DNA of 63,753 bases, the filler included, from Sphacelaria rigidula (Eukaryota), in assembly GCA_964200075.2 (NCBI GenBank). It is 9 parts of 9 records of this genome, joined end to end, with 100 filler letters (N's around TTAATTAATTAA, not from the genome) between each part and the next. Parts side by side here need not be neighbours in the genome. Positions count along the whole stretch, not along the records: positions 49,667 to 56,660 come from CAXNAA020017046.1; 8 more parts are not named here. One strand, 5' to 3'. The stretch's first letter is position 1. Every line of letters starts with the position of its first letter. Shown here in pieces: positions 1,240 through 63,753 of the stretch. The position numbers were made by a program, and so were the translations under genes. A model generated the notes under the pieces. It worked only from the letters and a program-made list of their open reading frames with translations, ran no database searches and was not told where the DNA came from.

Positions 1240-2047
1240 CGAACAAATAATGATTCGCCTGGAAATTACTTGGTGTTGGTATGATGAGTCGACTCGTGAT
1301 GAATCAATCCCTGGGTTTTATTTCAGCGTTGCAACCCAGATACACGCAGCCCAGACACGTGGAATAGCGCAAAAGTTGGGTGGATACTCCATGGACCAGC
1401 GATCAACAAGACAGACAGCATATTCCCGGAGCGGCGGCACGTTTTACGTGGTGCGCTAGTAGCACGAAGCAAAATACGGATTTTGGGCAATACCATGGAT
1501 ACGCCCTCAAAACGCAATTCCCCTCGGCGCAGACTGCGTGAAATGTCAGTGGATGCATATTCTGACACGCAGATACGCTCACTTCCTGCGGGGTTGCTCC
1601 TGCCCCGGCAAATGAACACACTTTGGATGATGTCATTTTGCGGTACCTATCTTGATATCGAGGTGCTCATTTCAGGAGACACGGCCGTGCAAGCGCTGTA
1701 AGTGCTTTCACGTGCCGAAACTTCGACCACGTGCGTGATGCGAATTTACCCGCCTGAAAGTGTGGTTCCTTAGCTTCGTATGAACTTGCACTGTTGATGC
1801 AGGAGAGGATGATAATTTTGTCAAGGGGTAGTAAGGCGTGCAACGACAACGCGCACACGGGTAAGTCGCGAGGGTCAGACAAATCAATCATTCGTCTGGA
1901 AATTACTCGATTTTAGCGTATTTGATTCGAATCGTACGAATCAATCCCTAGGCTTTGTTCTCAGCGTCGCAACCCAGGTACACGCAGCTCAGACACGTGG
2001 AATGGCGCACAAGTTGCGTGGATACCCCTGTTCACCAGCGGTCAACG
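1240..2047 (+). repeat. Diverged direct duplication (about 1240-1407 and about 1876-2047)
   Basis: Shared blocks ctggaaattact, gaatcaatccct, gcaaccca.cacgcagc.cagacacgtggaat and ccagcg.tcaac in the same order. Confidence 0.8.
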
Positions 2048-3265
2048 TTTTTCTCCCTTTTGGGCAATCGGGCCGAAGAAATCGTGGAGTTGGGTGATCC
2101 AAACCCGTGACGATTCGTCCTGACAGCAGCAAGTTGGAGAGACAGGTTATTCTAGCAATCTGCACTAAGGTTCATTGATGGTGTCCACAACGAGTCAACA
2201 CACCAAAAAAGTTTCACATGACTGTAGGTTGACTCTTCTTTACTTGCATTCTCTATCGCTCTATTCAATTCTCTTCCACGTCGCTCGCCTGACTGAATCA
2301 AATGCTTGCAAACGCTCTAACGCCGCACGGTCGCCAGTGAGCCGGGAGGGTTACACAGATTTCAGCCTCCCCTCTTGTATCAAGCTTACATCCGATCTGA
2401 TCGAACCTCATCACACCTGTCATCATACAGAGTCGAATACTTGGCCATGCACACCTCCTACCCTCGTGGCAGTTTGGCGTTCGCCCAGCATGCGCACAGC
2501 GTGCGGAGCACGGGTGCTGACTGTAGCCAAAAACAAACACGCTCTGTCCAAAGCGTCCCCTGCACCCCACCTTACCCGAGAGTCGTGTATCTATCGTGGG
2601 TCGAGGTTGAGGTACTTGTACTGGAAGCGTGAACACACGCAGTACGCAGCGTACGCCTTCTCCTAGTGAAGAACTGGACCATGCGCATTAGCTATACCGT
2701 ACGTGAAGGGCAAGTTGGATTTGTCGGTAGGTACTGTCGAAGGTGTCGCGGAGGAATACATCATCCCTCTTTGAGTATCACCCCTCTTCGAGAGTGATGT
2801 GCAATAAGATGCCATCGAAACCAGACAATTAATTTCGAAACACTTTTAACTCCCCCCCTCCCCTCTCCCTCGGGAGGAGTCCGCTGTGTCACGATCAATC
2901 CATCACTCCCCCGGTACACGCCATGCATTTGGTGTCGCTGAGTGGATGAGCACTCTCTCTCGCACCGCGTCGACTGATGGCAAACTCGTTTTGATACTAA
3001 CAGCCTCATGCCTGATCCCGTCCAAGTTGTAGTCCAACTCGAGATCTCGGCGCTTCCCACCCACAGAGGAAACGCTGCCAGCTTTCACCAGTAACATCAG
3101 GGAAATTAGCTGTTTTCGTCGCCAACGGTCCGAGGAAAAGCTGACGCCAGTATGCGCACCTATACATTACAGCTCCACGCACCGTTTCGATCAAGCACTC
3201 GTCCAGCTTCCGCCGAATAATCGACACCCTTCGCCCTTCGCCCTCCTCCCTTCTACTCTCGCCAG

Positions 3266-3620
3266 CTACGCTAACGGCCTCAAGATCTCCTTCGCCAACT
3301 GCATCTACGGCCTGGCTAACGAGCTCGACCCCAGCATCGACGCTCAGAAGGTGCTGTACCTCGTGTCCTCCACGGCCGAATGCTTCCTTAGCCGAAAGTA
3401 CGGTCTACGCGTGGGCGCCCCGTACGGAGGCGTGTGCCTGCCGAAGGATGTGCCGGAGCTCACGAGCCTGGCGCCGGAGGGGTCGGTGTTCAAGGAGTTT
3501 TTGTCGGGCACCGGGAAGATCAACGACTGGATCTCGAGCGACCAAGCGAAGAACATGAGGGTAGAATTGACGGAGAGCCCTAACTGGGTGTCTCCCGACG
3601 CGCTCATCACTAGCAAGTAA
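3266..3620 (+). CDS. GMD: Terminal exon of GDP-mannose 6-dehydrogenase (UDP-glucose/GDP-mannose dehydrogenase family, AlgD-like)
   Basis: Polypyrimidine tract and CAG acceptor end at 3265. Translation YANGLKISFANCIYGLANELDPSIDAQKVL...RKYGLRVGAPYGGVCLPKDV...SK* matches the family central domain (KISFAN; catalytic-Cys motif GGxCLPKD). Codons are GC3-rich and the stop is TAA at 3618-3620. GMD versus UGD specificity is inferred. Confidence 0.88.
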
Positions 3621-6304
3621 AATTGACATAAATGGAGTGCTTCAACCAGCCTAGAGGGTGATTGGTTTGTATGTTACCACCTGTCATTCTGAGTTGAGAA
3701 TCAGATATGTCGTGAATGAGTGATTCGGAATTTTGTTGCCCGGTACCGGGAGTTGCTAGTGGAACGTGATAGTGGTAGTCCTCTTGAACATGATTGCACT
3801 TCTCCCGGCTTTATGTCCGGCTAGGTATCGGCTTTGCTGCTCGGCCTGTCCCGCGCCTGTGGTGTTGTGTGAACGATGGTAAAACGGGTTTTCCGAGTTG
3901 TGGAAAAATGAGAACGGTGGAAAGTCTCCTGGAGTGACATTTGGTTGTGAAGCTGGAGTCGCATCGTTGTACTTTCGGGTTGTCTTTCGATGCGTTCGAG
4001 CACGTTGCTGGAGGCAAGAGAGGTTCGAGTTTCGGAGCGCGATGGTGAGCGCCCGCCTGCCTCGTATGTTGTAAAGCGACGGCCCCGGTGGAGAGTGGAG
4101 GGGGGGGGCGGCGTACACCCGTGGTGACGTTTCAGCCACTCTCGAAGCCCCAAGAGTTGTGTGTTACGGACAGTGGCTTGGGTTGTACGACAGGTGCGAT
4201 GTTGCTTTTTTCCTGGTTTTGTGATTAAACAAGTCTACTGGTGGTGATTGCATGTTGAACCAATTTAGTGTGAATGCGTGATGAGCGCGTAGAGGACCTG
4301 CGTTCGTCCTTTGAGTTTTCAGTGTTTCATTTGGGTACTATTACGTTGTTATTGGTCTAGTTTGTAAACTACGATGTGAACTTTGTGTCGGATTGCATCC
4401 TTGGGTGGGGTGTTGTCGTTGTGCCTCACCAACCTCTGAGTGGTCAATATGCTAATAAATTTCTTCAGCCAGCTATGGAAGGACTTTGTTGAGATTCGTG
4501 CTTGTCTACTAGAGAGCGAAGAACGCTCTACTGCCCAGGGTCGACATGTGTGGCCTCATGTCATCCCGTGTATCGCTTGTTCCGAACAATGGGATTGCCC
4601 CCGGATAGCACCCATCAGGCGACGGGTCCACTGCTCACCTGTCCCAAACCATGATTTTTCTCATACTTTTTCTTCCACGTGCTGTATTCTTTTGGTATGG
4701 TGGGATCAACGTTGCATCCTGGAGTATTTGAATGTTTTTTTGAAAGTGGAAGCGACACAATTGTATCACATTGTCGGATGGGAATGAAAGCGTTACACTC
4801 GGGCTATTGATACATCTGAACTGATGGTGTATTTTTGGTTCACCTCTGGAGGTGATGGTTTTCACCGGCAAAGTACATTGACACGGAAAAAGCTGATCCA
4901 ATGACGAACTTTCGATCTAGCACCGCAACGATTACACTGCTGCACCCGCACAATTTCCCTCTTGTAACTGATGCTGCGGCAACCCCGTCCCGGAAAAAAA
5001 ATGGCAGGGGGTTGGGGAGTTATTTAGATGTCAATCAAAATCAACACGACGGGAACCGAGCACGCCGAGCAGCAAAGAACTCGCACGGATATTTTTCTTT
5101 CGCCCATGTCGCTCATGAAGCGCTTCATCCAGTCTGAAAGCAGCCATCATGTGCGGTTTGGCCCTCGTTTCGCGTTAGTTTAGGGACAGGTTCAGGAAGC
5201 GCGCAGATGTCATCCACCGCTTCTCTCATTGAGGGTTCATTATCGCCGGTGATGAAGCGGTGACAATATTCCTTCTCCAGCTTAGTCAGTGCAGAGCCGG
5301 ATTGAACGAAATCCATCCTCACAGTCGACGACGAAAACGAACAGCTGGATCCTCAATCCTCATTACGGTAAAATTAAGCCAATCACCACAATAACAGTGT
5401 GGTGTGCTTCGAGTATAACGGAAGATCCCGGCTGATGCGCCCACATATCCGAAAGTTGTAGATGGGCATCCAGAGCGGATGGAATATCAACACACAACAC
5501 ACAGCGAAAATGATTTTTCCTAGCTCATCATTATTCATGGTTTAAATGTTCCACCCTTGTACGCGAGTGGGAGGTGCTATCCACCGGTTCAGCGATTGGG
5601 GCGGGTGATTTCGCGTGGTAGCAATGCGAGGGTCAATGGCCAGTTGACTCCGCTGTGACTTACTCACCACCCACGATCACAAAGATGATGGCTGAAGCTT
5701 CACCATCACGCTATGCGTATGAGCTCTACAAGATCATGACCATGAGTCTTACAAAAATAATGATCTCCAGTATCTCCAAGGCGGGGCATTTAGGGGGCAT
5801 CAGGCTCGCCGATGGATCCTGATGGATCGCATTCTACCACAACGACTTCGAAAAAAACAAAAACAGAAGAATCCAAAACAGTACGAAATTCTATCGGGTC
5901 GGGCAAGGAGGCGTTTTTCAATTTTCTTCTATCCAATCTAACTCTTTGACACCTATATGCATCTTCGCGTTACATGCATCACACCACATCTTACGCCACC
6001 GGTTGCGGGCCACGCTTCATTACTGCGTCTCGAACATCCTAATAACCCACGATCATACAACATCATGCGGGTTGAACAGCCGCCGCCCGAGAGATGGCAA
6101 ATGGCCAAGGCATGGAGACAGGCACCGGTGGGCGATTTGCCAGTTGCTACCCAAGGTATGCGATACACCATGACAAACTGTTGTACACCGTGATCCCAAG
6201 CAGGAACTGCTCGCTTCACAGCTTCGCAGGACTAACGAGAGCCCAGATGGATCGATCACTGAAGTGATAGGTTGAGCGCCATGAGGGTACCAGTATAGTC
6301 GATT

Positions 6305-7096: not shown

Positions 7097-7191
7097 GTGC
7101 GGACCGATCGGTGCGAACTCAACCCCATCCCCCCAATAACACAATTCGCACGCAATGTAAAATACCCACCCCCCCCCCCCCCCCCCCCCCC

Positions 7192-14192: not shown

Positions 14193-14400
14193 GTATTTCG
14201 TCTTGGTTTCCGCCTATCTACTTCCACACTTTCTTGATTTCTTCATCCCACCTTATTCCAGTCTGCCCTATCGTACGTTTTCTCCATACAGCCATATCAA
14301 CTATAGCTGGCAGCCACTTTCTTTGCATGTTCTTTACGCTATACTGTACTGCCATCGCAATTTCCTCATGTCTCTGTTGTTTTTAAGTGAGTACATTCTG
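14193..14400 (-). mobile_element. Fragment of the poly(C)-tailed LINE family, inverted relative to the main copy
   Basis: Reverse complement aligns with about 15545-15740 (both give LLP.FLDFFIPPYS in the ORF track). Confidence 0.8.
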
Positions 14401-14489
14401 AAGCGCGGGGGAGAAGGAATGATTGCCATGATGGTTATGCTGTACTGCTGGATTTTGGAAACGAGTACACATCCAAGAGGTGGAGAGGA

Positions 14490-16935
14490 GGAGTAGTAGT
14501 CAATCTTTTTTTTATAAAAGGAGACAAGGCTGACCCTGGGCAATGTGGAGGGACGACGCTCTTGAGCACTTGAGCACGATAGGGAAACAAGTCTGTAAGA
14601 TTCTCAACGATAGAGTGGGAACGATGCTAAAGTGAGAAGTAAAAATCAGCGGAGGGCAAGCAGGATCTAGACTAACCCGTAGTTGCGTAGACCATGTGTA
14701 CACATTAGGTAAGATTATTCAAGGTAGGAAATACGCCGGGCTGACAACGTACTGTTTCTTTCTGGACGTTCAAAAGGCTTATGATACAGTATGGAGAAAT
14801 GGGCTGGGGAAAAGGTTTCGGGAAACAGGGATCAGAGGAAAGATGTGGAGAATGGTGGAGAAGATGACAGAATGAGCCAAAAGTGCTATGTTGCTAGTCG
14901 GGGGTATATCGAAATATTTTGGTATTTTACGAGGAGTTGCACAAGGACGTACGATATCGCCCACCTTATTCGAAGTATTCAATATTGACTTGATAATAGC
15001 AATAGAAGAGACAAAGCGAGGAGTCAAGAAGGGTGAGGATATGTTATCAGGATTGATGTTCGCAGATGATTTTGTGGGAATATCAGAAACACCACAAGTA
15101 TCACAAAAGCAAATAGAGGAGGCGCCAGAATAGTCTAGGAAGTGGAGAGTGACGGGGAACGTCAGCAAATGCGTGGTACTCACATGTAACGAAGATAAAA
15201 AAAATCAATCCAGTAGAGTTCAAATGGAAGAGGGGAGAAGAAAAACAGCCGATCGTAAACCAGTATACATATCTTGGCGCAGAGATATAAGAGAACTGTT
15301 TTTGGGATGCACACATGAACAAATAGATTAGGGTAAGGCATAGATAGGCAGGATGGACGTGATCCTCAGGGACTCGCACCTAGATACTAGGATTAAGAGA
15401 TGTATCCTGATGAACGTGATCGTACCAAAGCTGGAATATCCAGGAGACGTAGAAGTTGGAAGCAGTTCAGATGACAGAAGCTAAGAAAATACTTGGATGC
15501 TCGAAAACGACGAGTAACACTGCGTACAGAGCATTATTGGTAATGCACCCACTCAAAATAAACCGAGATATGAGAAAATTGAGATGACGATATAACGTGA
15601 AGAACATGCAGAGAAAGAGACTGCCAGCCATAGTTGATAGGGCTGTATTGAAGAAAGTAACGAGACGGCATGCTATAAGGTGGGATAAAGAAGTCGAGAA
15701 AGTATGGAAGGAGATAGGTGGAAGCCAAGACAAAATACTGTCCACAGGTGAAGGTGCGGGGTACAAGATAAAAGTAAGAGACATGGTAAAAATAAGGGAA
15801 AAATAAACTCTCAGATGAAAAGTAGACGAGGAAGAACACCTCAAGATTTACGGGGGGTTGAGAGAGGGAATGGGGATGAAAACATATATGTATGGTTCAA
15901 TGGACGCGGCGAAAAACATGAAACTCCGATTTCGGGTGGGGGACCTGGACCTGCCAGAAAGAAGAAATATATATATCAAAAGTCGCGTGGAGGAGGAAGT
16001 AGATGGACAGAATTGCCCCTGTGGCAAAGCAATAGAGATCGGAAGTCATATAATGGCAATATGTGAACTATACAAGGAAGAACGGGACGTGCTAGAGGAG
16101 GACATACGGGACGTGAACGAAGGTGGCATGGAATCGTTTGATGCATTAGACAGTAGGGAGAAAGCGATGGCTATACTAGGAGATAGCTGGTGGCCACAGA
16201 CGGCGAAACAGGACGGGGAGAAGATATGTAAAAGGTTTCAAGGGTAGGTCGAGTAGAGTATGCTCAACACTCAGTATTTTTGAAGAGTCATACTTTTAGT
16301 ACTCAAAGTTTGAGTGGAGTATGTGAGGTGGCACTCGACCTACTCAATTATTTGAGTAGAGTATTTGAGATCATACTCAATCTACTCAAAATTTGAGTAG
16401 AATATTGAGGTCATACTCAAGTGATACTCTACGCTCAAGTATTACTGAGAGAGCTTACTCAATATTAGAGTAGAGCATTGGAGGCCGCACTCAACGTACT
16501 AAAAAATTGAGTAGAGTTTTGAGGTCATACTCAAGTGATACTCTATACTCAAGTATTACTGAGAGTGCTCACTCAACCTTTGAGTAGAGTATTGGAGGTC
16601 GTACTCTGACCTACTCAAAATTTGAGTAGAGTATTGGAGGCCGCACTCAACGTACCCAAAAGTCGAGTATAGTATTTGAGGCCGTACTCGACCTACTCAA
16701 ACGTCGAGTAGAATAAATGGTTATTCTACTCGAGTACTCAAAAGTACATACTCTACTCGACCTACCCTTGAAAGGTTTTTGTGTAATGTATGGAAGAAAT
16801 GTGTTGAACGCCGGATTGTTGGAGGTGTCACTATAAGGAGTAGGAATGGTGCTGCGCCTCGAAAGGGATGCGTGATCAAAGACCAAACGACTAAGGCAAA
16901 CAACGAATGAGTACAACCCTCCCTCCCTCCCCCCC
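14490..16935 (+). mobile_element. 5'-truncated, decayed LINE (RT plus C-terminal CCHC finger) ending in a C-rich tail
   Basis: Peptides KGDKADPG, FLDVQKAYDTVWR, GVAQG..ISPTLF, MFADDFVG and CPCG...SHIMAICELY. After removing the 16239-16770 MITE and one TSD copy, the frame reads KICKRF-LCNVWKK...TTKANNE*, followed by ccctccctccctccccccc. Confidence 0.9.
16239..16770. mobile_element. MITE family C (P- or hAT-like) built of palindromic subrepeats, 8-bp TSD
   Basis: Perfect 24-bp TIR caagggtaggtcgagtagagtatg / catactctactcgacctacccttg. TSD aaaggttt at 16231-16238 and 16771-16778. Interior has repeated tactcaaaatttgagta-type palindromes. Confidence 0.92.
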
Positions 16936-21097: not shown

Positions 21098-21128
<31 letters not shown>

Positions 21129-21574
21129 CCCCCCTCCCCCCCCGCTCGCCCCGGCCCCAAAACCACCCCCGCAAACCCGCAACCAAGNNNNNNNNNNNNN
21201 NNNNNNNNNNNNNNNNNNNNNNNNNNNNNNNTTAATTAATTAANNNNNNNNNNNNNNNNNNNNNNNNNNNNNNNNNNNNNNNNNNNNGGGAGAATGTCAA
21301 CTCCGCACAATTGGGATGATGGTACTACGTGGTGTCTGAATGGTGAGACACCTATGAGGCAGTGCATAAACCGTGGCTGCCTCTGGAAGTGGCGATACCA
21401 CAAAATAAAGCAACTCATCGGAGGCTGTCATTCAAATGCAAGATTATCAGTAGGTTTCGGGCCGGACAATCTCGGCAGGATGCAGCTCACCCATCATGCG
21501 ACTCGCTGAACAACACACCACGGCGCTTCGCGCTTGGCGATTGGTTGCGAGCCTGGTCCGGCGAAAACCCGGCG

Positions 21575-21670
21575 TGCTCCGTCCCGTCTTTGTAGGGATG
21601 CGAGGTCAATGGTCATTAGACTTTGGCACAGAAGATCATGAGTAACCCACCCATCCCCACCCACCCCCTC
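21575..21670 (+). mobile_element. Divergent 3' end of the poly(C)-tailed LINE group
   Basis: gtgctccgtc...gggatgcgaggtcaatggtca...atgagtaa followed by cccacccatccccacccaccccc. Confidence 0.65.
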
Positions 21671-22619
21671 CTCTCCTTTGACCTATTTGGATCGGGTGAT
21701 GGAGAAGTGACGATTTATAGTTGACGTTTTCTTGGGCAAGATATGGTTGTATCAGTTGCACGTAATAAATTTTGTATCACCCCGCTCTATCCCCGCGCCC
21801 GCTCAATGGTGATTTTTTTTTCAACGTTATCCCATCTAACAATTTCCCAACCGTTAACCCTGGCATGTGCTGTGCTGTGTTGTGCGAAGGATCTCGGGTG
21901 TTGCTTGAGCTACGTGGATAAGCTGCCGTGTAAGCACCCCCACAAGAAGACCAAAAAGGTGATGACAACTAATATCATCACTAATGCCATTTTTCCCGAA
22001 GCGCTCTGCCCGTAGTGAGAGGCATGCGAAGGAAATGAACCTGTTCGCTCTTTTTCTGAGAAAAAAAACATTTTTTATTTTCATTTCTTTGTCTTTCCTT
22101 CCTTTTAATGGAGTTCATGCAAGCGCGTAGGGTATAGGGGGAAGGGGCATGCAACATGGCAATTCTTCTCGCGTCGGGGGCAGGGAGGAAGGGGGGGGAA
22201 GAGACAGCTTGCGAATTTCAATTTTCACGTGTTGGAAACCGGACCTGTTGGAAAGCTTTTTTTTTTTCCCTTCGTCCCCTGGCGAATGACTTACCATAAG
22301 AACTCTTGTGAATATAATTGTGTCGATACGTGTGCTGTTCAGGGGATTCCGGTAGCTCAATCCGATCAAGCACGCACGAGTGTAACGAGAGGATCGCAAG
22401 GACGTTAATGTTTTTCTGGTTGTTGTTGTCATTCCTCGGGGAGATCTCGTGTTTTAGTTTATTTAACAGGGGGTCCTGAAAAACGGGAAGGAATTCTTTG
22501 TGTGGGAACGACAAAGAAAATGGGGCTCGAAACTATGCAGAATGTACCCCTCCAAGGCACCGACGATACTGGAGGTCCTCAAAAGGTTGAAAAGTCTAGC
22601 CCAGAGGTTGTGGTACCAT

Positions 22620-22825: not shown

Positions 22826-25633
22826 TGAAAATGAAAATGAGGGCCATTTGTCTCCGAAGTAATGCACGTCATGTGCGGGCCTGAAAACGTGTTTTACTCT
22901 GGCCCAAAAACTCGAATTATGCTGTTGATGAAATTTCAGAACTCCCAACCGCTCCTCTCGGATCATGTTGATATATGGATCATATTTATATATATATATA
23001 TACTTGTGCATGTTGTCCCCCTCTGTGGTCGTTGGAGAGCTGTTGAGTTTGATGAGAGTTTGAAATTGATTTTCTTCAATGAAGTTGTCCGCAAGTGGCG
23101 AGAGCCAAAATAAGTTGAACCTTTCGAAACGCTGAATGTTGGGCACTATTGCCTGTTCTAGGTCAGCGTCGGACGTATACCATGTCTCACAATTTCACCC
23201 CCATTTTTGTGTTCGTTTGTCGTTTCCATAAAAACAATTCGTCCTAATGTTTCCAGCATCCCCTTGCTATGTGCGGTTTATGACGATACCCTCTTTTCTC
23301 TTCGTTCTTGCTGTTGCTTGTGGGTGTTCCTTTCATTTTTATTTCCCTTCCCTTTAATTTCTTCATTTTGTTTTTCCTTTTTATTATTAGTATTTTTTTC
23401 CCGTCTTTTTCTCACCTTCATTTCCTCTTCACCCACTTCTCTCTCTTTTTTGCCTTTCTTCTTCATACATTCAACAGGTGCTCCCGCCGAAGGAAAGCAT
23501 GGAAGCGGCGAGGTCAGGTGCCCCCGTTCCCGGTGGTGTTCAAACTAGCGTAGAAGAATGGACTCTTCAGGTCAGTTTTTCATCCGAGTGGTCGTGGCCC
23601 TATGCCTGGACTGATTCCGCGATAGCCCTCAACCCCCCCCCCCCCCCGATAAGTGGCTGGTACGAGGGGACGAACTTTATATGTCAATGATAGTGGCAAA
23701 AGCGGAGCAAACCCCACGGCTGGAAACTTCCACGCTTGGGATTGTTTTCGCTAATATCGCATACATGAGGTGCTTTTCCAATCTCAAGCCAGCTATCATG
23801 CGCCGTATGACGACTCTCTTCGAGACTATTCTGGGTCCGGTATGGGGTGCGAGGGGGGCGGAGGGGGTGCTATCGCGGGGTCATTGAATACCTGTTTCCC
23901 AATATATACGCATGTGTCTATCCATCGTATCGGCCCTTTTGTTTCAGACCCGCGGTCGAAAGTTGAAGTGTTCACGGGCAACAGCCACGCACACAAAATA
24001 TCATACTCTTCTCCTTGGAGGTATTGTCACTGCATAAGCGAGGTGCGGGTGGTACTTTCACTTTCCCATCAGGGAAGAAACGAAGACAACTGCGCCACCT
24101 GGAAGATGATAACTTTTCGAGAGTGATATTTAAGGGGTGGTACCTGATGTATGTAGGTTTTTGTTGCATATAATTCGCACAAACTATGGGTTCTTGTTCT
24201 TCGGTCTTCCACATTGAAATCAAGCGATTGTAACGCCTCGGCGGGGTTTCCGGTTCAAAATGACCCTTTTTGAACGAGACGCATAAGTTTCTTGGAAAAA
24301 AAAAAAGCGCATAAAAAATGAAAGCCTGAATGTACGCTGGGGTAGTCTAAACAGGGTGGTGTGTCCTTTTCGGGGATGAGGTAGTGGTTGCGTACCCTGG
24401 AATTGATCATAAGCGTTACCGTTATTCAAGTGCCTCTCGCGGTATCTAGCCCTCGCGACGAGATTGGACGACGCAAGTGACGTCGAGTTTCGATCTCGTT
24501 GTTGTCTTGTTCAGTCGCGTTTTTCATATTTTTCGGAGGATGGAGGACCGCTGCACGTACCATTGACTGAGAAAAATCCCACGGCAACTCACTCTGTCGA
24601 TACCGGATCTCTGAGTCAAGTTAAAAACTTGAAAAGAAATATATTTTGCGAGCTTTCCTCTCAAACATGGGACAGCAGTTTTTTTTTCATTAGCATACTC
24701 AGAAGATGATTTTTCTCAAGATTTGGGTCGCTGGTTAAAAACAATCGGTAGGGAGGAAGCATCTCGGGTCGGAGAAGTAATATCCAAGCGAAAATGTAGC
24801 GCTACCTTTCCGCATGTCATGTACGTATCACTTTGATTGAAGGGAGGTACTGGCCAGACGAAGTTATTACGAGCTGGGCCAGCTGACTGATTCCCGAATG
24901 TGTCCGGGCCGGGCGGTGTGTAATCCGAAGCGTTTGGCGCTGAAATTTTGACACAACATTTTTCTCATTACTACGCACAACCTTCCTGGGGATGCCAACA
25001 AAACAGCAACAATAGAAAGTTAGAGCGATTTGAAGTTTCTGCAAAAATTAGAAGAATGTATAGCTCCGTGAAAATAAAGAAATATGGGGGCATCTCCAGT
25101 GTAGTTGTGCGTCCTTTTGTGGCGGAGGTCGTGGTACAATTTCGGCCAAAAATTCCAGAAATTTGGCGCAGCATCCACCTTTTCGTGTGGCACGGCTGCG
25201 CTCGTTTAATCCAAGTGATGCAGTAGACTATGTTGTAGTTATGTAGGTCACGAATTCGAATCCCGGCGGATTCCTTTTCTTTTGTTCCGTCGGTTAGGTG
25301 ATACATTATGCATTCCATATATATATACATATATATATATATTCATTCAGCGGCGGTCCCGTGCGTTGCCACGTTGGTGTGCAGGTCACAGCGATATGCT
25401 CAAGTCGGCCTGACTTGATAAACTTGCTAAGTTATGGTGTGAGATGCAAATGCGGGATTTATTGCTGGCCCAGCTCGTACTCATTTGGTTTTTTTTCCGA
25501 CTTGAACAGGAGGACAGTCTCATACTGTCGGCCGTAGAGCAATTCGGGGAGAACTGGAGGCTGGTGGCATTTTTCCTGAACAAGTCTCCGTGCGTCCGAG
25601 GTCGTATCAGGTAGGCTATTGGAGCACTAGACT

Positions 25634-26832: not shown

Positions 26833-28460
26833 ACTTGTCCGTATTATGCTGTAGTCGTTTCTTTACCTTGACATGTCGGCGTGGTATAACCATTGGTATG
26901 TTGTTTGTTTTTGTGCAGATCGGGCAGCCAGTGCCGATCGCGATATGCCAATCTGCGGGCGATGGGTTCGGTGCACCGATTGCCAAGACCAGCACGTGGT
27001 CCCAGCGTGCGATTGCCACCCGACGTGTCGGGCATCGCGCTCGTTCCGTCAGAACCACCAGCGGTGGCTCAAGCAGTCAGATCCAGAGGTACGAGTCAGC
27101 GCGGGGTCTATATCTAGTTTAGCTGTTGTCCTCTTCTTTTTTTTTTATTCTGTTCCCATCTGTATATTTTCATCTTAATCTAATTTATTTATTTTGTCTC
27201 ATATTTTGATTTTTACTCCTTTTCATCTATGTAGTTTTACCTTTTTATTTATTTATTATATTGTCATACTTTAGCTTACCCAGACCTTTCTCGGGACCGG
27301 GTCATGATCAGTAGTATCAGTATCCGTCCTTCCCTTGATCCCCCCCCTCCCCCTCCCCCTCCCCCTCCCGGGACGCAGAAGCATCTTGGGTTGGGGTTGG
27401 TTAGTAGGGTTAGGTTGAGGGTCTAGCGATCATTGCAGAATGCCTCAACCGTGTGATGCAGCGTCGAGCGAGTAAGAACACTCTTGTCTTCCACGTCCCT
27501 ATCACACACGCTGCACGCTTGCAGTGGCACTAGTACCGCTTGCAACGGGAGCCGGACGACAAGCGTACAGGGCGCGATTCACCGCTCTGGTGGCTGCCAT
27601 GCACAAGAAGCCCGCTCCTCCACCTATCCCTGGCTGCGACAATCCGGAGGTAAGCCGTGGGATCTTCAGAGCTGGCGTTGGGGTAGTCTGCTTTCATTTT
27701 GCAAAAAGAAACGATGATTTTTGTGTGTCTCACGACCGGTGGTCGATGTTAGCCAGACCTTTTTTCTTGTCTCGTCTCGTCTCGTCTTGTCTTGCCATAT
27801 CATGTTTAGTTTTCCAATGTTTGGTTGTGTTGTGTTGTGTGTGTTTCGTTTTGTTTTTCCGTTTGGCAGTTGACTCTATTCTGCTCTCTTTTTCTATTCT
27901 CGTGTTTCTGTTTTTCTTTCTCCCTTTGACATAGTTGGCCTTTTCCTCGAGCTTCCTTAGCGAGTATCCCCCTTGCTTTACTTGCCTTCGACTTCGTACG
28001 TGTGTGTTGCATTGCATTGCACACAATTTTGTAGGTACACATTTCGGGATCGGTGGGGGAAGCGGGGCCGACATGGAAACTGATTTACCCCTGTCTTCAT
28101 CACTTGTCGGTTGTTGGTTTTTCCCCTGACTAGTTGCCTCAACACATTTTTGTTTTGACATGTATTCCCTGCCGAGTAAAATTATAGCAACTCTATGACA
28201 GCCATCCTAGGATATGGGGGGGGGGGGGGGGGAGGATTTGGGGTTTTTTTTTCCACGTTATGAGCAAAAAACAACCCCTGTTNNNNNNNNNNNNNNNNNN
28301 NNNNNNNNNNNNNNNNNNNNNNNNNNTTAATTAATTAANNNNNNNNNNNNNNNNNNNNNNNNNNNNNNNNNNNNNNNNNNNNAATGGACACAATCCCGGA
28401 AAGCGGTTGATTCTCATTTCAAAATACCTTCTCATTTTTCTGGCAATCCTGGTACATGCC

Positions 28461-49474: not shown

Positions 49475-49566
49475 AACGGTGCTCCGTCTCGAAATGGATG
49501 CGTGGTCAATGGTCACACGACTAAGGCAAGCAACAAATGAGTACGCCCCCCCCCCCCCCCCCCCCC
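49475..49566 (+). mobile_element. Short 5'-truncated copy of the poly(C)-tailed LINE
   Basis: aacggtgctccgtctcgaaatggatgcgtggtcaatggtcacacgactaaggcaagcaacaaatgagtacg followed by a C-run to the contig end. Preceded by a C10 run. Confidence 0.85.
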
Positions 49567-49797
49567 NNNNNNNNNNNNNNNNNNNNNNNNNNNNNNNNNN
49601 NNNNNNNNNNTTAATTAATTAANNNNNNNNNNNNNNNNNNNNNNNNNNNNNNNNNNNNNNNNNNNNGTACTGATTATCTCGCATTTGGATGACAGCCTAC
49701 AATGAGTTGCTTTATTTTTTGGTATCGCCACTTCCCGGGAGGGCACAACGTGACCAAACACATGCACACATAGACACACACTCACACACACACACAC

Positions 49798-52298: not shown

Positions 52299-54369
52299 GA
52301 TACCGGCATGCTGTCATTTGAGGGGGTGTCGGAGGGTGACGCTTACATGGAAAAACGGCCTAGCCATGTCTGCAGCATCACGGTTCATGAGTGTCGAAAG
52401 GTCAGTCATGGGATATCCTTCTTGTTTCGACACGACTTCAGGTGCCCAAGGGCTTCACAAACCTTCCGATCCCTTATTTCCTTGGTCAAAAACGCCTCGT
52501 CCCACCACTCCATCTCCAAACTCTTTCCTTCCTTCTCCGCTTCCACTTCCTCCGCCCAGCCTCTCAAAGGCGCCACCGTCACGGCCGCAGCCCGACTTTC
52601 CCCCGCGGCCCCTTCCTCAACGTCCATCTTGTCGCCGTCCCCCGCCCCCGCGAGCTTGACGTCGGTGTCCCCGTCCAATTGCTCCGCGCGGTTCCGACCG
52701 GACATTCGGCCAGAGATAAGCTTTCGGTGCTCTCGAAATCGAAGGTTTTCCCCCTGATGTTGAATCGTGAACGAGGTATCGAGGTATCGAGGTCATGGTC
52801 GGCGGAATGAGTCATGAGGATGGGAGGGGGGGGGGTACTCATTTGTTGCTTGCCTCAGTCGTTTGACCGTTGACCACGCATCCCTTTCGAGACGGAGCAT
52901 GAGGATGGGGACGGAGACGAGAACGGGGTACATTCATGCCTCGTACCTACGACCAAACTGCCCCCTCCATACATTTCGACTGTTCCGTTGCATTTCGTTG
53001 CCTTTAGGGGAAAGAGCGCGACGAATTCTGCAGCTATGGTGTGCCAGTTGCCTACGCAGTGCTACAGGGTGGTCGCCGCGCCTCGGCGGCATGTCTCATG
53101 GTTCAACTGACGCATGCGTACCTATTTTGACTGGCGTACTTTCCGTCCTCGACAAAACCAAATCACGCCAGGAGTCATGTTTTTAGAGGTTTCTGCGTCG
53201 CAGTAGACCATGATCTACAACACACCGATGACGGGAGTCGAACGCACGTTGCAAAACCCAAAAATATTAGAGGAACATGAAAGTAAGAGGGTCGTTATTC
53301 AATCCGTGGGGGAGGGGGAGGGGCTGACGCCTTTCATGTGTGAAAAATGTGCACCTGTTTGATGTACGTCCCTTCCTCGACGAAGTTGAAGGCTCGCTTA
53401 GCTCGTTTGTCTCTGCTGCCTGTCTGGACTCGAGGGTCCACCACCTGCGCCGCATCCGACTTGTCTTCCTGTTGATATTCGTTATTGGACGGACATCCAA
53501 AGACGGACGGTGGGATTCCATTTTTTGGTTAGGCAAATCCTTACTTTTTTTCGTCCAACACGAGGATCGGAATATTTTTTTTGAAAGGATGCTCCCAAAA
53601 AACGATTGAGGGGGGGGGGGGAAGCGGCGGTAGTTGGTTTCCAATATTTCCCACCATCAAAATCCTTACTGAAGACCTACGATCAATCGTCTGTAGCTCA
53701 TACCGGTGCTTCCTGTGGTCTCTGCGCTACTTGGCAGGTGAACATGGCTTGGTGCTTTTGGTTGTACAAGATAGATTGCGTTGAGCGCAAGGTATATGCT
53801 GAATGCATTTAACCGTCACAAGACTGAGGGGGGGGGGGGGGGAGGTTTTGTGGCTAACGGGGGCGGATCATTCATACGTTGTACATCACCCCCTGAACAG
53901 CCCCACCCGGCGATACGTCATCGGCCATGGTCGGCATCATGCCTACACCTACAGAAGAGTTACGGAGTACGTTGTACATCATCCTCCTCGGATAGCACCC
54001 TCCCGCGATACGTGCTCGTCAATTCTCGGCATAATGTCCGCACCTACTAGCAGGTGACGGTGTACGTTGTGCAGGCGACGCCACCACTCGAGAGCTTGGC
54101 ACGTGAGACCTTGCAGAGAAAATATCAAGGTTGTGTTTCGTGTTTGTCATTATTTTGTTGTCATTACTGTTGTTGTTGTTTGTTTGTTGGTGGTGGTGGT
54201 GATGGTGTTGTTGTTTTTGTCGTTATCGCTGCTGCCTTTCTTCTTTCCTTTCTGAGGCCGTTGCTTCTGTCTTTCTCTGTTCCTTTCATTATTTTTTCTT
54301 TTATTATTCTGTTTTTTTTTTGCTGCTCCTGACCACGGGCTGGATTGTTGCCATCAGCTAATGTGAGAT

Positions 54370-57518: not shown

Positions 57519-57556
57519 TGCGAACTGCAGAATCGCTTTTCGGCTGGCCCAGATCG

Positions 57557-57916
57557 TATGGAGAAATGGGTTGTGGGAAAATATATGGGGAACTGGGATC
57601 AAAGGAAAGATGTGGACGATAGTGCAGATGTCAGAATGTGCCAAAAGTGCGATGGTGCTACACGGGGAAAGACAAAATATATATATATGTATTTTACAAG
57701 GAGTTGCACCAAGATGTACGTTATCCTCTACTCGAAGTATTTATTCATTGATGACCTGATATTAGCAATAGAAACAGCAAAGCGAGGAGTGAAGTTGATG
57801 AAGAAATTGGAAATCGTATAGATGGCAGCAGCTAAGAGAATACTTGGATGCAGTGAAGTTAGTGAAAGGTGCTAGAAAATTACTTGGATGCTCGAAACAA
57901 ATGAGTATGCTCCCCC
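57557..57916 (+). mobile_element. Internally deleted derivative of the poly(C)-tailed LINE
   Basis: gtatggagaaatggg...ggaaagatgtgg matches 14789 onward, tacttggatgctcgaaa matches about 15490, and it ends acaaatgagtatgctccccc. Confidence 0.75.
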
Positions 57917-58287: not shown

Positions 58288-59046
58288 CAAGGGTAGATTG
58301 AGTAGAGTATACTCAATACTCAGTATTTTTGAAGAGTCGTACTTTTAGTACTCAAAGTTTGAGTAGAATATTCGAGGTCGTACTCAACCTACTCAATTAT
58401 TCGAGTAGAGTTTTTGAGACCTGTAGACTCTGACCGCCATTGTTACCTAAGGTTAGGGACATTCTGTAGGTGGAATTGCGGGTCTGATTGCCGTACTCTG
58501 TGATGGGTGACCTCCATGACGTGTAGAGCCGGTTTTGCTACTCTCGAGGAGAGAGGCTATGGTCCCGTTCTCCTGTACCATGCTGAGAGTTAATATATGA
58601 ATATCTGAAGCTGCTGAAGTCCATATGCCCGTGATGGGAGGAGTCCACGTGGTGATCTGATCTTGAGTGACAGAAGTCTATAGATCATACTCAATCTACT
58701 CGAAATTTGAGTACAGTATTGAGGTCATACTCAAGTAATACTCTATGGTCAGGTATTTCTGAGAGTGCTTACTGAAAAATTTAGTACAGTATTTGAGATC
58801 GCACTCAACCTACTCAAAATTTGAGTAGAGTATTGAGGTCATACTCAAGTGATACGCTGTACTCAAGTATTACTGAGAGTTCTTACTCAATATTTGAGTA
58901 GAATATTCGAGGTCGTACTCCACCTACTCAAAATTTAAGTAGAGTATTGGAGGCCGTACTCACCCTACTCAAACCTCGAGGAAAGTAAATACATGAGTAT
59001 TTTACTCGAGTACTCAAAAGTACATACTCTACTCGACCTACCCTTG
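58288..59046. mobile_element. MITE family C, second copy (plus a fragment at about 59245-59435)
   Basis: Same TIRs (caagggtag... / ...ctacccttg) and colinear interior. No TSD is visible here. Confidence 0.9.
58422..58682. mobile_element. 261-bp solo-LTR-like insert nested in MITE C
   Basis: Absent from the 16239 copy. Ends tgtagact.../...agtctata. Flanks gacc / gatc where the empty site has a single gatc. Confidence 0.7.
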
Positions 59047-60324
59047 AAAAATGATCGTTTCCATACTAAACCGGCTGGTGAAATGGGGCGCTGGGGCAGT
59101 ACGCTTTGAAAAACAACTATGACCATCATTCCCTCATCGTCCTTGTTGGTTGCGATGTAACGCCGCCCATCCAATTGATGGCCATCGTTCGCCCATGTAT
59201 TCAACATAGTCTGTGGAATGACGTCACGAAGTCGCCGACTGTCAGGGATACTCACCATACCCAAGTTATATACTATACTAAAGTATTACTGAGAGTGCTT
59301 GCTCAATATTTGAGTTGAGTATTTGAGATCGTTTTCGATTTACTCAAAAATTGAGTAGAGTATTTGAGACCATACTCAACCTACTCAAAATTTGAGTAGA
59401 GTATTTGAGGCCGTACTCGACCTACTCGAAATCTGAATATTGGCCATTCTTCCTTAGCTGCACGCAACGCTTCCAGCCAACGTAGCCATCCCTCTGTTCA
59501 ACGAGCTGCAACGAGCTGCCTCGCATTACAGACTGCACACCTCTCTGTGTACAAACAAGAGTATTTTTGCAAAAACTGTCCGCAGCTGAAACAAACTTTG
59601 CCAGAAACCAGTTGGTTCCCTGAATACACGTTTATTATAGACCCCTCCTGGACTCAGAACAAGGTCACAAGACTGCTCCAATGGCTTCTTCCCTCACTAG
59701 GGCTTCGAGACTTCAAAACAGATGTTATTTACAAATACGCAGTTTTCGTTATCGAACGTAACCTACTGCACCTTTTTGGACAGCATATAACGCCAAGCAG
59801 TCGTAGTCATACTCTAGAGAATATCTGATGACTTAATATCATGATGCAAAGTTCATATCCGAACCTCCATGCATCAACCTGCTCTCCTCATGCATCTGCA
59901 CGTGTACTAGAGGTGGACTACTATACAGCCTGTAAAAAACGTCGAAGACAGGATATATAGTCGCGGAGTTGCATGGTAAAATAGGGAAAATACGTTAGTT
60001 TGGGTACTGAATAAGTTATGACAAGACAATGCACGGGAAGATAAGGGGCTGCATGATATCGAAAACCAAGTTTCAAGTAAGCGAACAAAATAGTATCCAA
60101 CTACGGTACCGGGAGGGAACAAGGTAGTCTCCAACTACGGTACAGGGTGCGTCAAGAAGTCAACCTGGTGAATAACAAACCATACAACCGATTACCAGTG
60201 TGGAATAAAATGCGGATCATCCTCAGTTACACCAAGGTGATACCCCTGTACCAGAATACTGTAAAAAGGTGCACGGGATTAGCTAAACCAAATCAAATTG
60301 CTAACACTCGACACCGGAACAAAC

Positions 60325-63300
60325 CGTCATTGATTGATTCATCGATTGATGGTCGCACTTTAACTGACCCCCCAGGGGTCCAGCCGTGGTCTCATGATAG
60401 ACGTACCCAAGAAAAACGAAAGTGAAACACGCTCTGAGAAAAAAAAGGAACATGAAGAAAAAAAAAGGGTCGAACAGAACGACATAGCAGACTAAGTTGT
60501 GACAAAAAAAAGTAATGAAGAAAAGTCGACACAAGCAAAGCACATAAGGAAATGGCCGACCTAAAACAAGAAAAAAGGAAAAGGAGAGGAAAGTACAAAG
60601 CAAATAAAATAAAATACAATTTATCGATGGGAAAAAAACAGGAAAAAAAAAAGGAAAAGACCCAAGGGAATGATTCAGGGCAGCAGAGTAGATACAGACA
60701 CACACCAATGGACACCGCAGAGCCACCGACCAAGGACATAATCAACAAGCGATGTGAGCGGACAGGATTTTCGCTTATGACGGCGGTCTGATTCTCGATT
60801 GTCCGCGCGTCACTACGTGTCCTCAGACATTTCCGCTCCCTTTTCGACTCCAATATACCCTTTGCCCCGGTCCTTCGCCGCAGTGATCCAATCGTATGCA
60901 TCGTTAACCTCTACACGGTAGGCGGACCACTTTCGTCGGGCTCCGTTGTGCGGGACAGCCCCTAGCGCACGTAGGTCCTCCTGTAGGGTATCCTCCCATT
61001 GCTGGGGGGGGGGCGGCCGACCTCCTTGGGTCCTCGTGTGGAAAGCCGACCGTTCATGACACGCTTCGGAAGGCTTGTGTCCTTCCGCCGGACAAGGGCT
61101 CCCGCGAACCAGAGTTGACGTTTGCGGATAGTCGCCTCGATACGTTCGCAGTTAGTCATCTCGAGCACCGCTCTGTACGAAAGAGTCTTGTAGCCATTTC
61201 GATCGTTCCATCCAACCACTCGAAGCAAGAGTTTGTGATAAGCAGTGCGCAGACTATCGAAGTCCTCAGAATGTCGCGCAGTGTTATTCCTTTTCGATAA
61301 TATGGAGGCGGTGTTTTGGCAACTTAGGCGTGAGGAGAATCCGCACCTCGTCTCAGATGACGCCGAAACTTGGAGAATGTGTAGATTCGTATTAGAGGAA
61401 GGTGTCACAGTCACAGCTGCGGCAGGGGAAGTCGCTTATGGCTCGGTCTGCATCGATGCGGTGGATAATCCCCACGCGCCCATTTTTGTTTTTTCACACC
61501 CTGCTGTCTGATGACGATTACAGTGGGTACAGTGTCAGTTGACCACGCTGACTGTCCATGGATCCTGCCGGCCTCATCATCAACCTTCGCCCAGTTATGG
61601 ATTAACGCTCGAAGAAACCCAGCAAACAAGCATCGTTTATGATCCGCTATATATATACTATGTAATATATATAAATGAGGGTTGGGAGGCGAACATTTCC
61701 GCTCCAAAACGGTCGACAGTGGAAGGTCAAGCTCCTGTCGCGCGACCAGTGGGTAGCGCGACGGGCCCTTGCCGGCGTAACTGGTACTGGAGGCGACATC
61801 CCGGTACAGACAGTCCCACCACTACCGTCACGGCCGTGCAAACAGGCTGGCAGCCGAAGTGGGCGTTGCAATGGTATTGTTCTAACCTTATCAACCTAGA
61901 TTATCTCCGCATTGGCTTTGCACGTGAATATTTTTCTATGATTGCCTCACTTCCACTTCGGCCATATTTTGGCGACAAGCCACGGTCTCACGGCCCAACT
62001 TTATATGTGAAAATGTACAACGATGGACGAGATATTTCTGTTCAGCTTTGACAAAAGTGTACTGCGCACAGTACTGAAATCTGCTGTCGACTGCCGAAGG
62101 CAGCACGGCGTCAAATGCGCGCAGTGTACTGTTAGACGGTCCAGGAATCCCCACGCCGCGAAAGGTGACAGCAAGCTTTCGCGCCATAGCGCCTGTGTCC
62201 ACAGCGACCTTCGCCCAACATACGAGCATTGATTATAGGAGCGGATAGCAGCGGAGGCGGATTTCACTTACAGCATCGAGCACGTTGTACCGCTACAGGT
62301 CTCACTGCTGCGGGTGGTGTGCAGTAAAACACAGGCGGTAAGCAGCATACGATGTGCTGTACTGGCTGTACTGTTTCATATGTGTTCAGACCAGTGCGCA
62401 CGGGGTGGGGCCCGCATTTTCATAACCCTCGACGAACTTCGTCGTGTACTATCGTCGTGGCATGATTTTTCAGCAGAAATCGCTTGCGATCTATGCTGTT
62501 ACATAACTCGTAAGTGATGCAGCTTCCTCCACATACGCAATCCGCCCGTGAGGCGAGCTCTTGATGCTGGAAGTGCCCACCCCTCTTTCCGTGATGATGT
62601 GATGTCCAGTCTTGGGCTCAGACTATTGAAACCTCGGAATATGACACTAACTACTAGAAGGTGCATATTCTCCGACACTCATGTCTCCATATTATCGAAA
62701 AAGAATAACACTTAGCGTCCATGTGGCACACCAATACAATAGAGCTTCCACCACCTCCGCTTTAAGCAATCGAACTTTCAAGGATAGCTCGGCGTTCGGT
62801 CCGTCATAGAGTTGGGAGCTAAATTTTCGGATACGCGCCCGCGCCGCGCTGAAATGGCGGTTGATCTCGATGGACATTTTCGCATTCGCGCTGATAGCTC
62901 CACCACGGTAGATGAACTTCCCCGTCTGCTTATACCGTTGATCGGCAGCTTTGATATTCAGGGTGGCCTCCGTGGGACTGGGTACTGACCAAAGGCCCAT
63001 GGACTTTGTCTTGGTCTCGGAGACCATCAGGTCGAATCCCTGGCAGGTCATCATCATTATCACGGCCATCATTCGAGCAAGGCCTTCCGAGGTCTTCGAG
63101 GCTATGCCGGCGTCGTCCCCATAAAGCATTGTCCACACTGCGCGTCGCATCTTTCCCAGTGGTCTCTCTTCCACGGGTTCACCACCGACACCTTGTGGTG
63201 CATCATCTAAAAAAACCAAGTCTGAGACGATGAGTGGGTCCGCCGCAAATCGCTGGACGACCACTTCCACCAAGCCTGCTCGGAAGATGTTGAGCAGCAG

Positions 63301-63575
63301 TGGAGATGAAACGCATCCCTGTCTGAGTCCCTGGAAGACGTCGAACCACGCTGATAGTTCGCCACAATCTAGCTGTACTCGAGCTCGCATGCCGTCGCGA
63401 AACATACGTATTATCGTTATCATTCGTGATGGGACTCCGAACCGAGCAAGTACTTCCCACAGGAGTGTGAGTTCTACAGAATCGTAGGCTTTCTGCAGAT
63501 CGATAAAGCACATGTTTATTGGGATGTTCCTCGCCCGTCCCAACTCCTGGAGTCGGCGTACTACGAACATCATGT
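60325..63575 (-). mobile_element. 5'-truncated RTE-like LINE (RT, C-terminus, 3'UTR), split by a TIR element
   Basis: 62692-63573: CFIDLQKAYDSV, GLRQGCVSSPLL, MLYGDD, LLYWCATWTL. Resumes at about 61278: FDSLRTAYHKLLLRVVG...IRKRQLWFAG...LPKRVM...GRP. 3' end has a CAAT-like tail. Confidence 0.92.
61279..62713. mobile_element. Non-autonomous TIR DNA transposon (hAT-like CAGTG end)
   Basis: TIR cagtgttattccttttcgataatatggag / ctccatattatcgaaaaagaataacactt exactly interrupts the LINE ORF. No clean TSD. Confidence 0.82.
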
Positions 63576-63689
63576 AAGCGGGGATTCTATGAAATGAGGT
63601 TGATCAATGAAATGAGCTTTGAGGAGGCCAGCCAGTATGCGACAAAAACCCAAGGGAAGTACCGTCCGCAAGTGCCTTGGATTATTTTC

Positions 63690-63743
63690 GGGGGGGGGGG
63701 GCGTACTCATTTTTTGCTTGCCTTAGTCGTTTGACTATTGACC
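63690..63743 (-). mobile_element. Short copy of the poly(C)-tailed LINE 3' end
   Basis: Minus strand ggtcaatagtcaaacgactaaggcaagcaaaaaatgagtacg followed by a C12 run. Possible TSD tttcggg (63686-63692 / 63744-63750). Confidence 0.8.
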
Positions 63744-63753
63744 TTTCGGGATG

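Follow-up and report, generated by a model that had tools for sequence, protein, structure and literature searches.

A single-ORF LINE family of Sphacelaria rigidula that ends in a (C)n tract and probably inserts into C-rich targets

We describe a family of LINE retrotransposons in Sphacelaria rigidula whose copies end in runs of C. The open reading frame (ORF) is closed by the TGA of ATGAGTAC(G), leaving a 3'UTR of about 5 nt, and directly behind it stands a (C)n tract of variable length, often interrupted by T, which belongs to the inserted DNA. The family is evidently huge. Overall, the observations are likely best explained by an abundant single-ORF LINE that carries a templated (C)n tail and uses C:G pairing for target-primed reverse transcription (TPRT) into C-rich targets. 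A (C)n 3' end together with C-rich target-site duplications (TSDs) was already known, having been recorded for Ectocarpus; in the accessible parts of the literature it appears in print as table notes only. The present data appear to add a second host in which the expansion is much larger, as well as sequence-level support for a tail located inside the insertion.

The window, i.e., the whole stretch of DNA analyzed (63,753 bases), consists of ten assembly pieces (as counted in the analysis) joined by N...TTAATTAATTAA...N spacers, and one of these pieces has an internal 10-N gap. The 7-mer ATGAGTA, with which the sequence-only reading of this DNA had defined six related 3' ends followed by C-runs, was not significant on its own in the window (11 matches versus 5.74 expected; 11 were reached in 5 of 100 shuffles). 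A 26-mer proposed in the same reading, searched with at most 3 mismatches, gave 4 matches in the window versus 0.00 expected (Table 1). Alignment revealed a ~67-nt module, GGTGCTCCGTCTCG...ATGAGTAC, common to the window copies. In copies a, b, c, d and f this module is followed by a C-rich tract, beyond which the sequences show no mutual similarity. Four of the six ends (a, c, d and f) are thus close copies and one (b) is a diverged copy, whereas the sixth (e) is doubtful. A Pfam scan of the 229 window ORFs of at least 90 aa found little beyond one other reverse transcriptase (RT), located at 62695-63603, and a piece of UDP-glucose dehydrogenase.

Table 1. Features of the LINE family in the window (positions of the whole stretch; L002, a full-length copy from outside the window)
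Feature	Position	Strand	Description
Copy a, part 1	14396..16239	+	matches L002 3157-5016; 75.7% identity to L002
Nested non-autonomous DNA transposon, 531 bp	16240..16770	.	interrupts ORF2 of copy a; foreign to the LINE
Copy a, part 2	16771..16935	+	last 44 ORF2 codons; TGA 16908-16910 inside ATGAGTAC; decayed C-rich tail 16914-16935
Copy a, 67-nt module	~16.9 kb	+	86.6% identity to L002
26-mer match	16889-16914	+	at most 3 mismatches
Copy b	21560..21679	+	diverged 3' module, (CCCA)-like C-rich tail
Copy b, 67-nt module	~21.6 kb	+	67.6% identity to L002; diverged
Copy c	49475..49566	+	5'-truncated; AACGGTGCTCCG...ATGAGTACG, then C21 to contig end
Copy c, 67-nt module	~49.5 kb	+	95.5% identity to L002
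26-mer match	49519-49544	+	at most 3 mismatches
3' TSD of copy d	52813..52824	-	CCCATCCTCATG on element strand
Copy d	52825..52897	-	5'-truncated insertion; body 52836-52897, ATGAGTA 52836-52842, tail C10 then T 52825-52835
Copy d, 67-nt module	~52.8 kb	-	92.5% identity to L002
26-mer match	52835-52860	-	at most 3 mismatches
5' TSD of copy d	52898..52909	-	exact 12-nt repeat of 52813-52824
Copy e	57550..57916	+	decayed, internally deleted LINE fragment; doubtful
Copy f	63690..63753	-	3' module + G + C12 (63690-63701); ends at window edge
Copy f, 67-nt module	~63.7 kb	-	68.7% identity to L002; part of module missing
26-mer match	63703-63728	-	at most 3 mismatches

The tract behind the module is C10 T in copy d, G + C12 in copy f and G + C21, reaching the contig end, in copy c, and it is decayed and CCCT/CCCA-like in copy a (CAACCCTCCCTCCCTCCCCCCC) and copy b (ACCCACCCATCCCCACCCACCCCC). 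The extent of 5' truncation varies, with 62 nt present in d, ~71 nt in c, ~2 kb in a and the full length in L002, and the 3' end is constant. Compared with the family, copy f lacks 9 nt internally. Homology to ORF2 was sought upstream of the module of copy b and was not found. Together with the divergence of its module, this fits a non-autonomous partner similar to the RTEX-N elements discussed below, and copy b is probably non-autonomous, using a 3' end borrowed from the LINE. The left side of copy e aligns with a stretch inside ORF2 of copy a. At its other end, a resemblance to the family 3' end is seen in the final ~12 nt (CAAATGAGTA plus TG) and in a C5 remnant, the terminal bases near 57901 (AACAAATGAGTATGCTCCCCC) agreeing with the end of copy c in 19 of 21 bases, plus TGCTCCCCC. 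On this weak evidence, copy e is probably an internally deleted and decayed member of the family.

The long copy of the window, copy a, is decayed and 5'-truncated, and its RT and CCHC region contains stops and frameshifts; in a tblastn comparison it covered residues 698-1360 of a full-length relative. Its ORF apparently ended ~660 bp short of the motif because it is split by an inserted 531-bp element that carries terminal inverted repeats (TIRs). The TIR is CAAGGGTAGGTCGAGTAGAGTATG, the 8-bp TSD is AAAGGTTT and the interior has ~114-bp tandem repeats. The flanks of this nested element abut in L002 at 5008-5016, and 16771-16927 matches the side of L002 that runs to 5164 (L002 5008-5164). Once the insertion is recognized, the ORF of copy a runs on to the TGA of the motif and ends there, as had been proposed, and the same stop is directly seen in two copies from outside the window, L001 and L002. 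Twin priming was considered as the source of an inverted fragment at 14203-14398 and was rejected, as the same region (L002 4318-4505) is also found in the direct part.

L001 was the sole locus obtained when metagenome contigs were scanned by pattern. In this long copy, ...ICRRFLCNVWKK...TTKASNK terminates at the TGA of the motif; GTACG, C10 and then unrelated sequence come next. Among prokaryote genome contigs, a scan detected three loci; their records are labelled bacterial but are evidently DNA of the algal host. L002, one of these three loci, has a single intact sense ORF (1146-5147), which is terminated by the TGA in ATGAGTACG, 5 nt before C13, and the DNA beyond is unrelated; neither a second sense ORF of at least 100 aa nor a separate ORF1 was found in this copy. 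At the 3' end of L004, ATGAGTA is followed by C11 T C9 T. A scan of viral contigs for relatives gave 38 pattern matches, none of which was confirmed. In all, eight independent 3' ends (a, b, c, d, f, L001, L002 and L004) pass from ATGAGTA(C/A) through a C-rich tract into unrelated DNA. These ends also bear on the question of whether the runs might be artefacts of sequencing or assembly, such as poly-G read ends of two-colour chemistry. The contig of copy c indeed ends within its C-run; however, the run is internal in d, f, a, b, L001, L002 and L004, with unique sequence on both sides, on a constant strand relative to the element and in assemblies from different records, and the probability of an artefact is practically negligible.

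The 140 C-terminal residues of L001 were used in a protein search, which yielded 24 longer proteins among 348 candidates. Two of them are full-length ORFs, P0004 (1360 aa) and P0013 (1328 aa), and the named matches were a Sphacelaria rigidula gene model (74% identity) and Ectocarpus sp. proteins (63% identity, P0014; 58%, P0024). In P0004 we detected an Exo_endo_phos domain (residues 170-392, E 3.4e-12), an RVT_1 domain (residues 740-989, E 9.8e-31) and, near the C-terminus, a CCHC motif, a CPCG...H...C finger; the whole ORF is present in L002 at 88% identity. The best relatives of P0004 among solved structures are human L1 ORF2p (PDB 8uw3 and 8sxt) and R2 proteins, a match that covers the RT only (E = 6.6e-21 over the RT for L1 ORF2p). 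The assignment of the element to LINEs is supported by this single ORF, in which an APE-type endonuclease, an RT and a CCHC finger are combined. The last 106 nt folded no better than shuffled sequences (z = -0.55), and a structured recognition element for the RT is unsupported.

Copy d is the only window copy with a firm TSD. The 12-bp direct repeat that had been reported around this copy is exact. It should be noted that the final TG of the 5' TSD may be the element's own (GGTG|CTCCG), i.e., a 2-nt microhomology at the junction as judged by eye. The C10T of copy d sits between ATGAGTA and the 3' TSD, which itself starts with CCC, and the empty site would read ...GTCCCC ATCCTCATG..., a target that starts with C's. 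Because the 11 bases of C10T lie inside the TSDs and only one extra C precedes the 5' TSD (GTCCCC), the run came with the insertion. The proposal that the C-run lies within the inserted DNA and that the target is C-initial is thus borne out at this copy. Copy c is adjoined on its upstream side by C10 (49465-49474), and the arrangement of C10 before and at least C21 after the element is compatible with insertion into a C-run. The TSDs of copies c and f were not callable; the TSD cccgaaa suggested for the latter is doubtful, as only 10 nt of upstream sequence are left before the window end and, counted on the alignment, 8 of these match the element's own sequence, with a 9-nt internal deletion. 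No TSDs of at least 8 nt were found around L002 or L004.

It might also be argued that the element has no tail at all and inserts exactly upstream of C-runs that already exist in the genome. C/G runs of at least 8 nt are indeed common, with 19 in the 63 kb of the window: 3 follow the module, 1 precedes copy c and the other 15 are elsewhere, not beside the module. In addition, the curated TSDs of Ectocarpus relatives are described as 'C-rich' (PMC12477816). However, the C10T of copy d lies inside the TSDs and its empty site has no such run, and we consider an exclusively target-derived C-run highly improbable. The same counts qualify the idea that the family seeds the G/C homopolymers of this genome: it does contribute, as 4 of the 19 long runs are associated with it, but most of the runs in the window are not explained in this way.

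DNA of the window was detected in sequencing runs of a coded organism A and of an 'algae metagenome', none of the runs listed being of RNA. To examine the family genome-wide, Logan contigs of four runs (X1, X3, X4 and X6, the last of which is only guessed to be RNA) were aligned to L001. The numbers of matching contigs were 108,213 (X1), 85,509 (X3), 15,469 (X4) and 3,987 (X6). In X1 the summed depth, which is not equivalent to copy number, reached 2.1-2.7 x 10^7 across the terminal ~60 nt, versus 56-597 in the unique flank. Depth climbed stepwise toward the 3' end of L001 and peaked over the last ~75 nt. Analysis of loose ends and joints was based on the best-supported cases, beyond which there were 2,073 further loose ends and 604 further joints. 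Among the best-supported 3' loose ends of X1, 1806, 411, 421 and 391 contigs at places 104-107, respectively, continue as a G-run on the plus strand of L001, and the same pattern was seen among the best-supported loose ends of X3, X4 and X6. On the element strand such a G-run corresponds to extra C's past the C10 of L001, often after one T. Past the C-run, agreement among the contigs fell to 0.36-0.45 (best-supported loose ends). This loss of consensus indicates that there is no common downstream 3'UTR and no A-tail, in agreement with the earlier reading, both in the window copies and in the best-supported contig classes. Contigs of X6, the possible RNA run, also extend past the C-run, which has no bearing on the transcript end.

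At the 5' side, the contigs likewise agreed with what had been noted at copy c, namely a C-run ahead of a 5'-truncated unit. At place 179 (...G|TGCTCCGTCTCG), a long C-run lies upstream of a truncated unit in 407 (X1), 366 (X3), 102 (X4) and 61 (X6) contigs among those listed, so that, in the contig classes listed, truncated units behind C-runs occur genome-wide. Moreover, at least 12 of the joints listed lead from 177-182 back to 104-108 (134, 102, 11 and 6 contigs), forming head-to-tail units of ~76 nt. These arrays raise the possibility that the ~76-nt units were amplified as a satellite, mainly by unequal crossing-over or replication slippage, with retrotransposition into C tails playing a minor part. 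The presence of head-to-tail joints between these places in all four runs and the sharp preferred 5' boundary at place 179 are consistent with this idea. However, short copies with unique flanks are dispersed as single insertions (c and d), one of them with a TSD, and depth falls stepwise toward the 5' end, as in LINE 5' truncation. We therefore regard satellite amplification as quite unlikely to be the main process. The two processes are not mutually exclusive, and unequal recombination could provide another route to the growth of head-to-tail arrays.

We propose the following scheme for the preferred reading, i.e., a templated tail and C:G TPRT. As the C tract is encoded behind the stop codon in source copies, it would be present in the template RNA; the genomic (C)n would be transcribed as the 3' end of this RNA or by read-through. 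The endonuclease would nick the bottom strand of a C-rich target, freeing a 3' end that finishes in G's, and these G's would anneal to the C tract of the RNA, thereby priming reverse transcription, so that C:G pairs would serve where L1 has A:T. Slippage on the homopolymer may then generate tails of variable length. The last 70-100 nt might act as a cis element, which would allow short 5'-truncated units and non-autonomous carriers to be mobilized as well, and existing C tails might serve as new targets and give rise to head-to-tail arrays.

Reverse transcriptases are able to add untemplated nucleotides. Thus, the RNA might have no C tail, with the RT or a transferase adding G's at the nick before ...GAGTAC(G) is copied. 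The variation in length and interruption of the runs (C10T, C12, C13, C21+ and C11TC9) would be consistent with such tailing, and RNA 3' ends were not observed. On the other hand, source copies carry the C-run right after the stop codon, and a read-through transcript would include it. The C-initial target and the truncated units behind C-runs both fit pairing between a C tract and a G-ended primer. C-rich TSDs also stand beside (C)n termini in the PMC12477816 table. Non-templated tailing is, in our opinion, unlikely.

The templated reading can be extended to a specific form of C:G TPRT, with an endonuclease that prefers C/G runs, a transcribed oligo(C) that pairs with a G-ended nick, head-to-tail arrays in which the ~76-nt unit alternates with (C)n, a copy number on the order of 10^5 or above in this genome, far beyond Ectocarpus, and a role of the family as the main source of long C/G homopolymers. 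This full form is held tentatively, as its probability appears to be slightly less than even. Such homopolymers are potential G4 or i-motif DNA. A homopolymer C tail cannot arise by polyadenylation, and the family therefore offers a natural test of the dependence of TPRT on base-pairing between the RNA 3' end and the target. It also bears on how the specificity of an endonuclease evolves together with the tail sequence, and on where the G/C homopolymers and short tandem arrays of large brown-algal genomes come from. Assembly quality is affected as well, as contigs break in the C-runs.

The sequence-only reading had named no described poly(C)-tailed LINE, but this tail is already catalogued for Ectocarpus relatives. 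In the curated transposable element table (PMC12477816, Supplementary Material 3), RTEX-1_Ec32 is annotated as 'single EN-RT ORF; (C)n 3'' with a 'C-rich' TSD, and RTEX-2_Ec32 (LINE/RTE-X) as '(C)n termini/TSD' and '(C)n 3'', also with a 'C-rich' TSD. The same source lists the non-autonomous partners RTEX-N1 and RTEX-N2, which carry the shared 3' 60-100 bp and 'can be present in tandem', and gives copy numbers of 1,062-3,812 per family (Supplementary Material 4). The main text of that paper is silent on the tail and on any mechanism ('c-rich' occurs 0 times and 'tail' 2 times). In the accessible parts of the literature on such tails and on brown-algal RTE-X, including PMC4421812, PMC9942856 and a brown-algal preprint, no discussion of a poly(C) or C-rich LINE tail was found outside this table. 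Searches of the Protein Atlas and PDB detected generic EN-RT relatives only, and the Atlas clusters contained almost no taxa.

The window family is most likely related to RTEX-1 and RTEX-2, two RTE-X families of Ectocarpus, a label that derives from common architecture, the character of tail and TSD, and brown-algal homologues. The families are alike in having a single EN-RT ORF, a (C)n 3' terminus, C-rich TSDs and non-autonomous partners. The C-terminal 140 aa of the window family are 58-63% identical to Ectocarpus gene models. The families differ in abundance: the tables report thousands of copies in Ectocarpus, whereas 108,213 contigs of one run match here.

Other Ectocarpus LINEs have repeat tails of a different composition, (CAA)n in RTE-1 and RTE-2 and (CA)n in CRE-1 (PMC12477816). 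They resemble the window family in having a short templated repeat tail instead of poly(A) and a 3' end common to non-autonomous elements. Such sharing of the 3' end points to an RT that recognizes the 3' region, probably with slippage on the repeat. Unlike in these elements and in eel UnaL2, which is a simple-repeat-tailed LINE, the repeat unit here is a single C, the 3'UTR is nearly absent and the module overlaps the coding end.

The logic of TPRT, in which the tail pairs with the nicked target, is established for L1. Human L1 and the window family are alike in that both have an APE-type endonuclease and an RT, and in that the TSD, here that of copy d, starts with the tail nucleotide, which fits pairing of the primer with a homopolymer tail. 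However, L1 has two ORFs, a poly(A) tail made by poly(A) polymerase and a T-ended nick at TTTT/AA, whereas the window family has one ORF, a C tail that cannot come from polyadenylation and C-rich targets. Microsatellite-targeting LINEs of the R1 clade, Waldo, Mino, Kibi and Koshi, have a tail repeat identical to the target repeat and form head-to-tail arrays by insertion into earlier tails. They differ from the window family in that they belong to another clade, have insect hosts and use di- to tetranucleotide repeats rather than a C homopolymer.

The protein-coding potential next to copy f, a 3' module of the poly(C) LINE on the minus strand, belongs to a different element. An open reading frame with a reverse transcriptase match lies directly downstream of this copy (Table), its reverse transcriptase is only 28% identical to that of the poly(C) LINE, and it represents a second, distinct LINE family. 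An inverted fragment of the poly(C) LINE adjoins the 5' end of copy a, the decayed 5'-truncated copy. Twin-priming inversion was ruled out as its source, since the direct part of copy a contains the same stretch of the element, as judged against L002 (the intact full-length copy from outside the window). Upstream of copy b, a diverged 3' module, the sequence at 21385-21452 shares 91% identity with the beginning of a different piece (49668-49735, minus strand); this upstream region probably represents the body of a non-autonomous element that is repeated and bears a LINE-like 3' end.

Table. Features of the window and of L002
Feature	Position	Strand	Details
ORF piece, UDP-glucose/GDP-mannose dehydrogenase central domain	3033-3617	+	E 1.6e-10
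303-aa open ORF, RVT_1 match	62695-63603	-	E 7e-14
Inverted poly(C) LINE fragment	14203-14398		adjoins 5' end of copy a; matches L002 4318-4505, 75%
Non-autonomous DNA transposon	16240-16770		inside copy a; TIR CAAGGGTAGGTCGAGTAGAGTATG; 8-bp TSD AAAGGTTT
Transposon relatives	about 58288-59046 and 59256-59440		final piece of window
Long C/G run	21099-21143		C29
Long C/G run	7169-7191		C23
Long C/G run	28216-28232		C17
Long C/G run	23633-23647		C15
Long C/G run	53828-53842		C15
426-aa antisense ORF	L002 3530-4810	-	within LINE coding region

The antisense ORF of L002 may be a by-product of sense-strand codon composition. Upstream of the sense ORF, at about 463-525, L002 contains a stretch that by eye resembles the reverse complement of a diverged 3' module (...AAACAAATGCCTTGCC...GAGACGGAGCACC). 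No G-run is adjacent to this stretch; it may have arisen as an old insertion in inverted orientation or may form a portion of the 5'UTR. L002, two further outside loci (L003 and L004) and P0007, a protein-search match to the LINE C-terminus, all come from assembly records that carry bacterial MAG or isolate labels (uncultured bacterium, Hyphomonas oceanitis, Sulfitobacter and Parasphingorhabdus). Most simply, these copies represent algal host DNA contaminating bacterial assemblies.

No recognisable copy of the 3' module was found beside the five long C/G runs in the Table, which might have originated as the tails of other families, or of copies of which truncation has left almost nothing. Recognisable host-gene fragments, the dehydrogenase piece among them, are very few in the window.

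The transposon nested in copy a contains internal tandem repeats of ~114 bp. Because of its 8-bp TSD and repeat-rich termini, hAT or the KDZ families of Ectocarpus would fit this element; KDZ families are on record for Ectocarpus in a curated TE table (PMC12477816, Supplementary Material 3).
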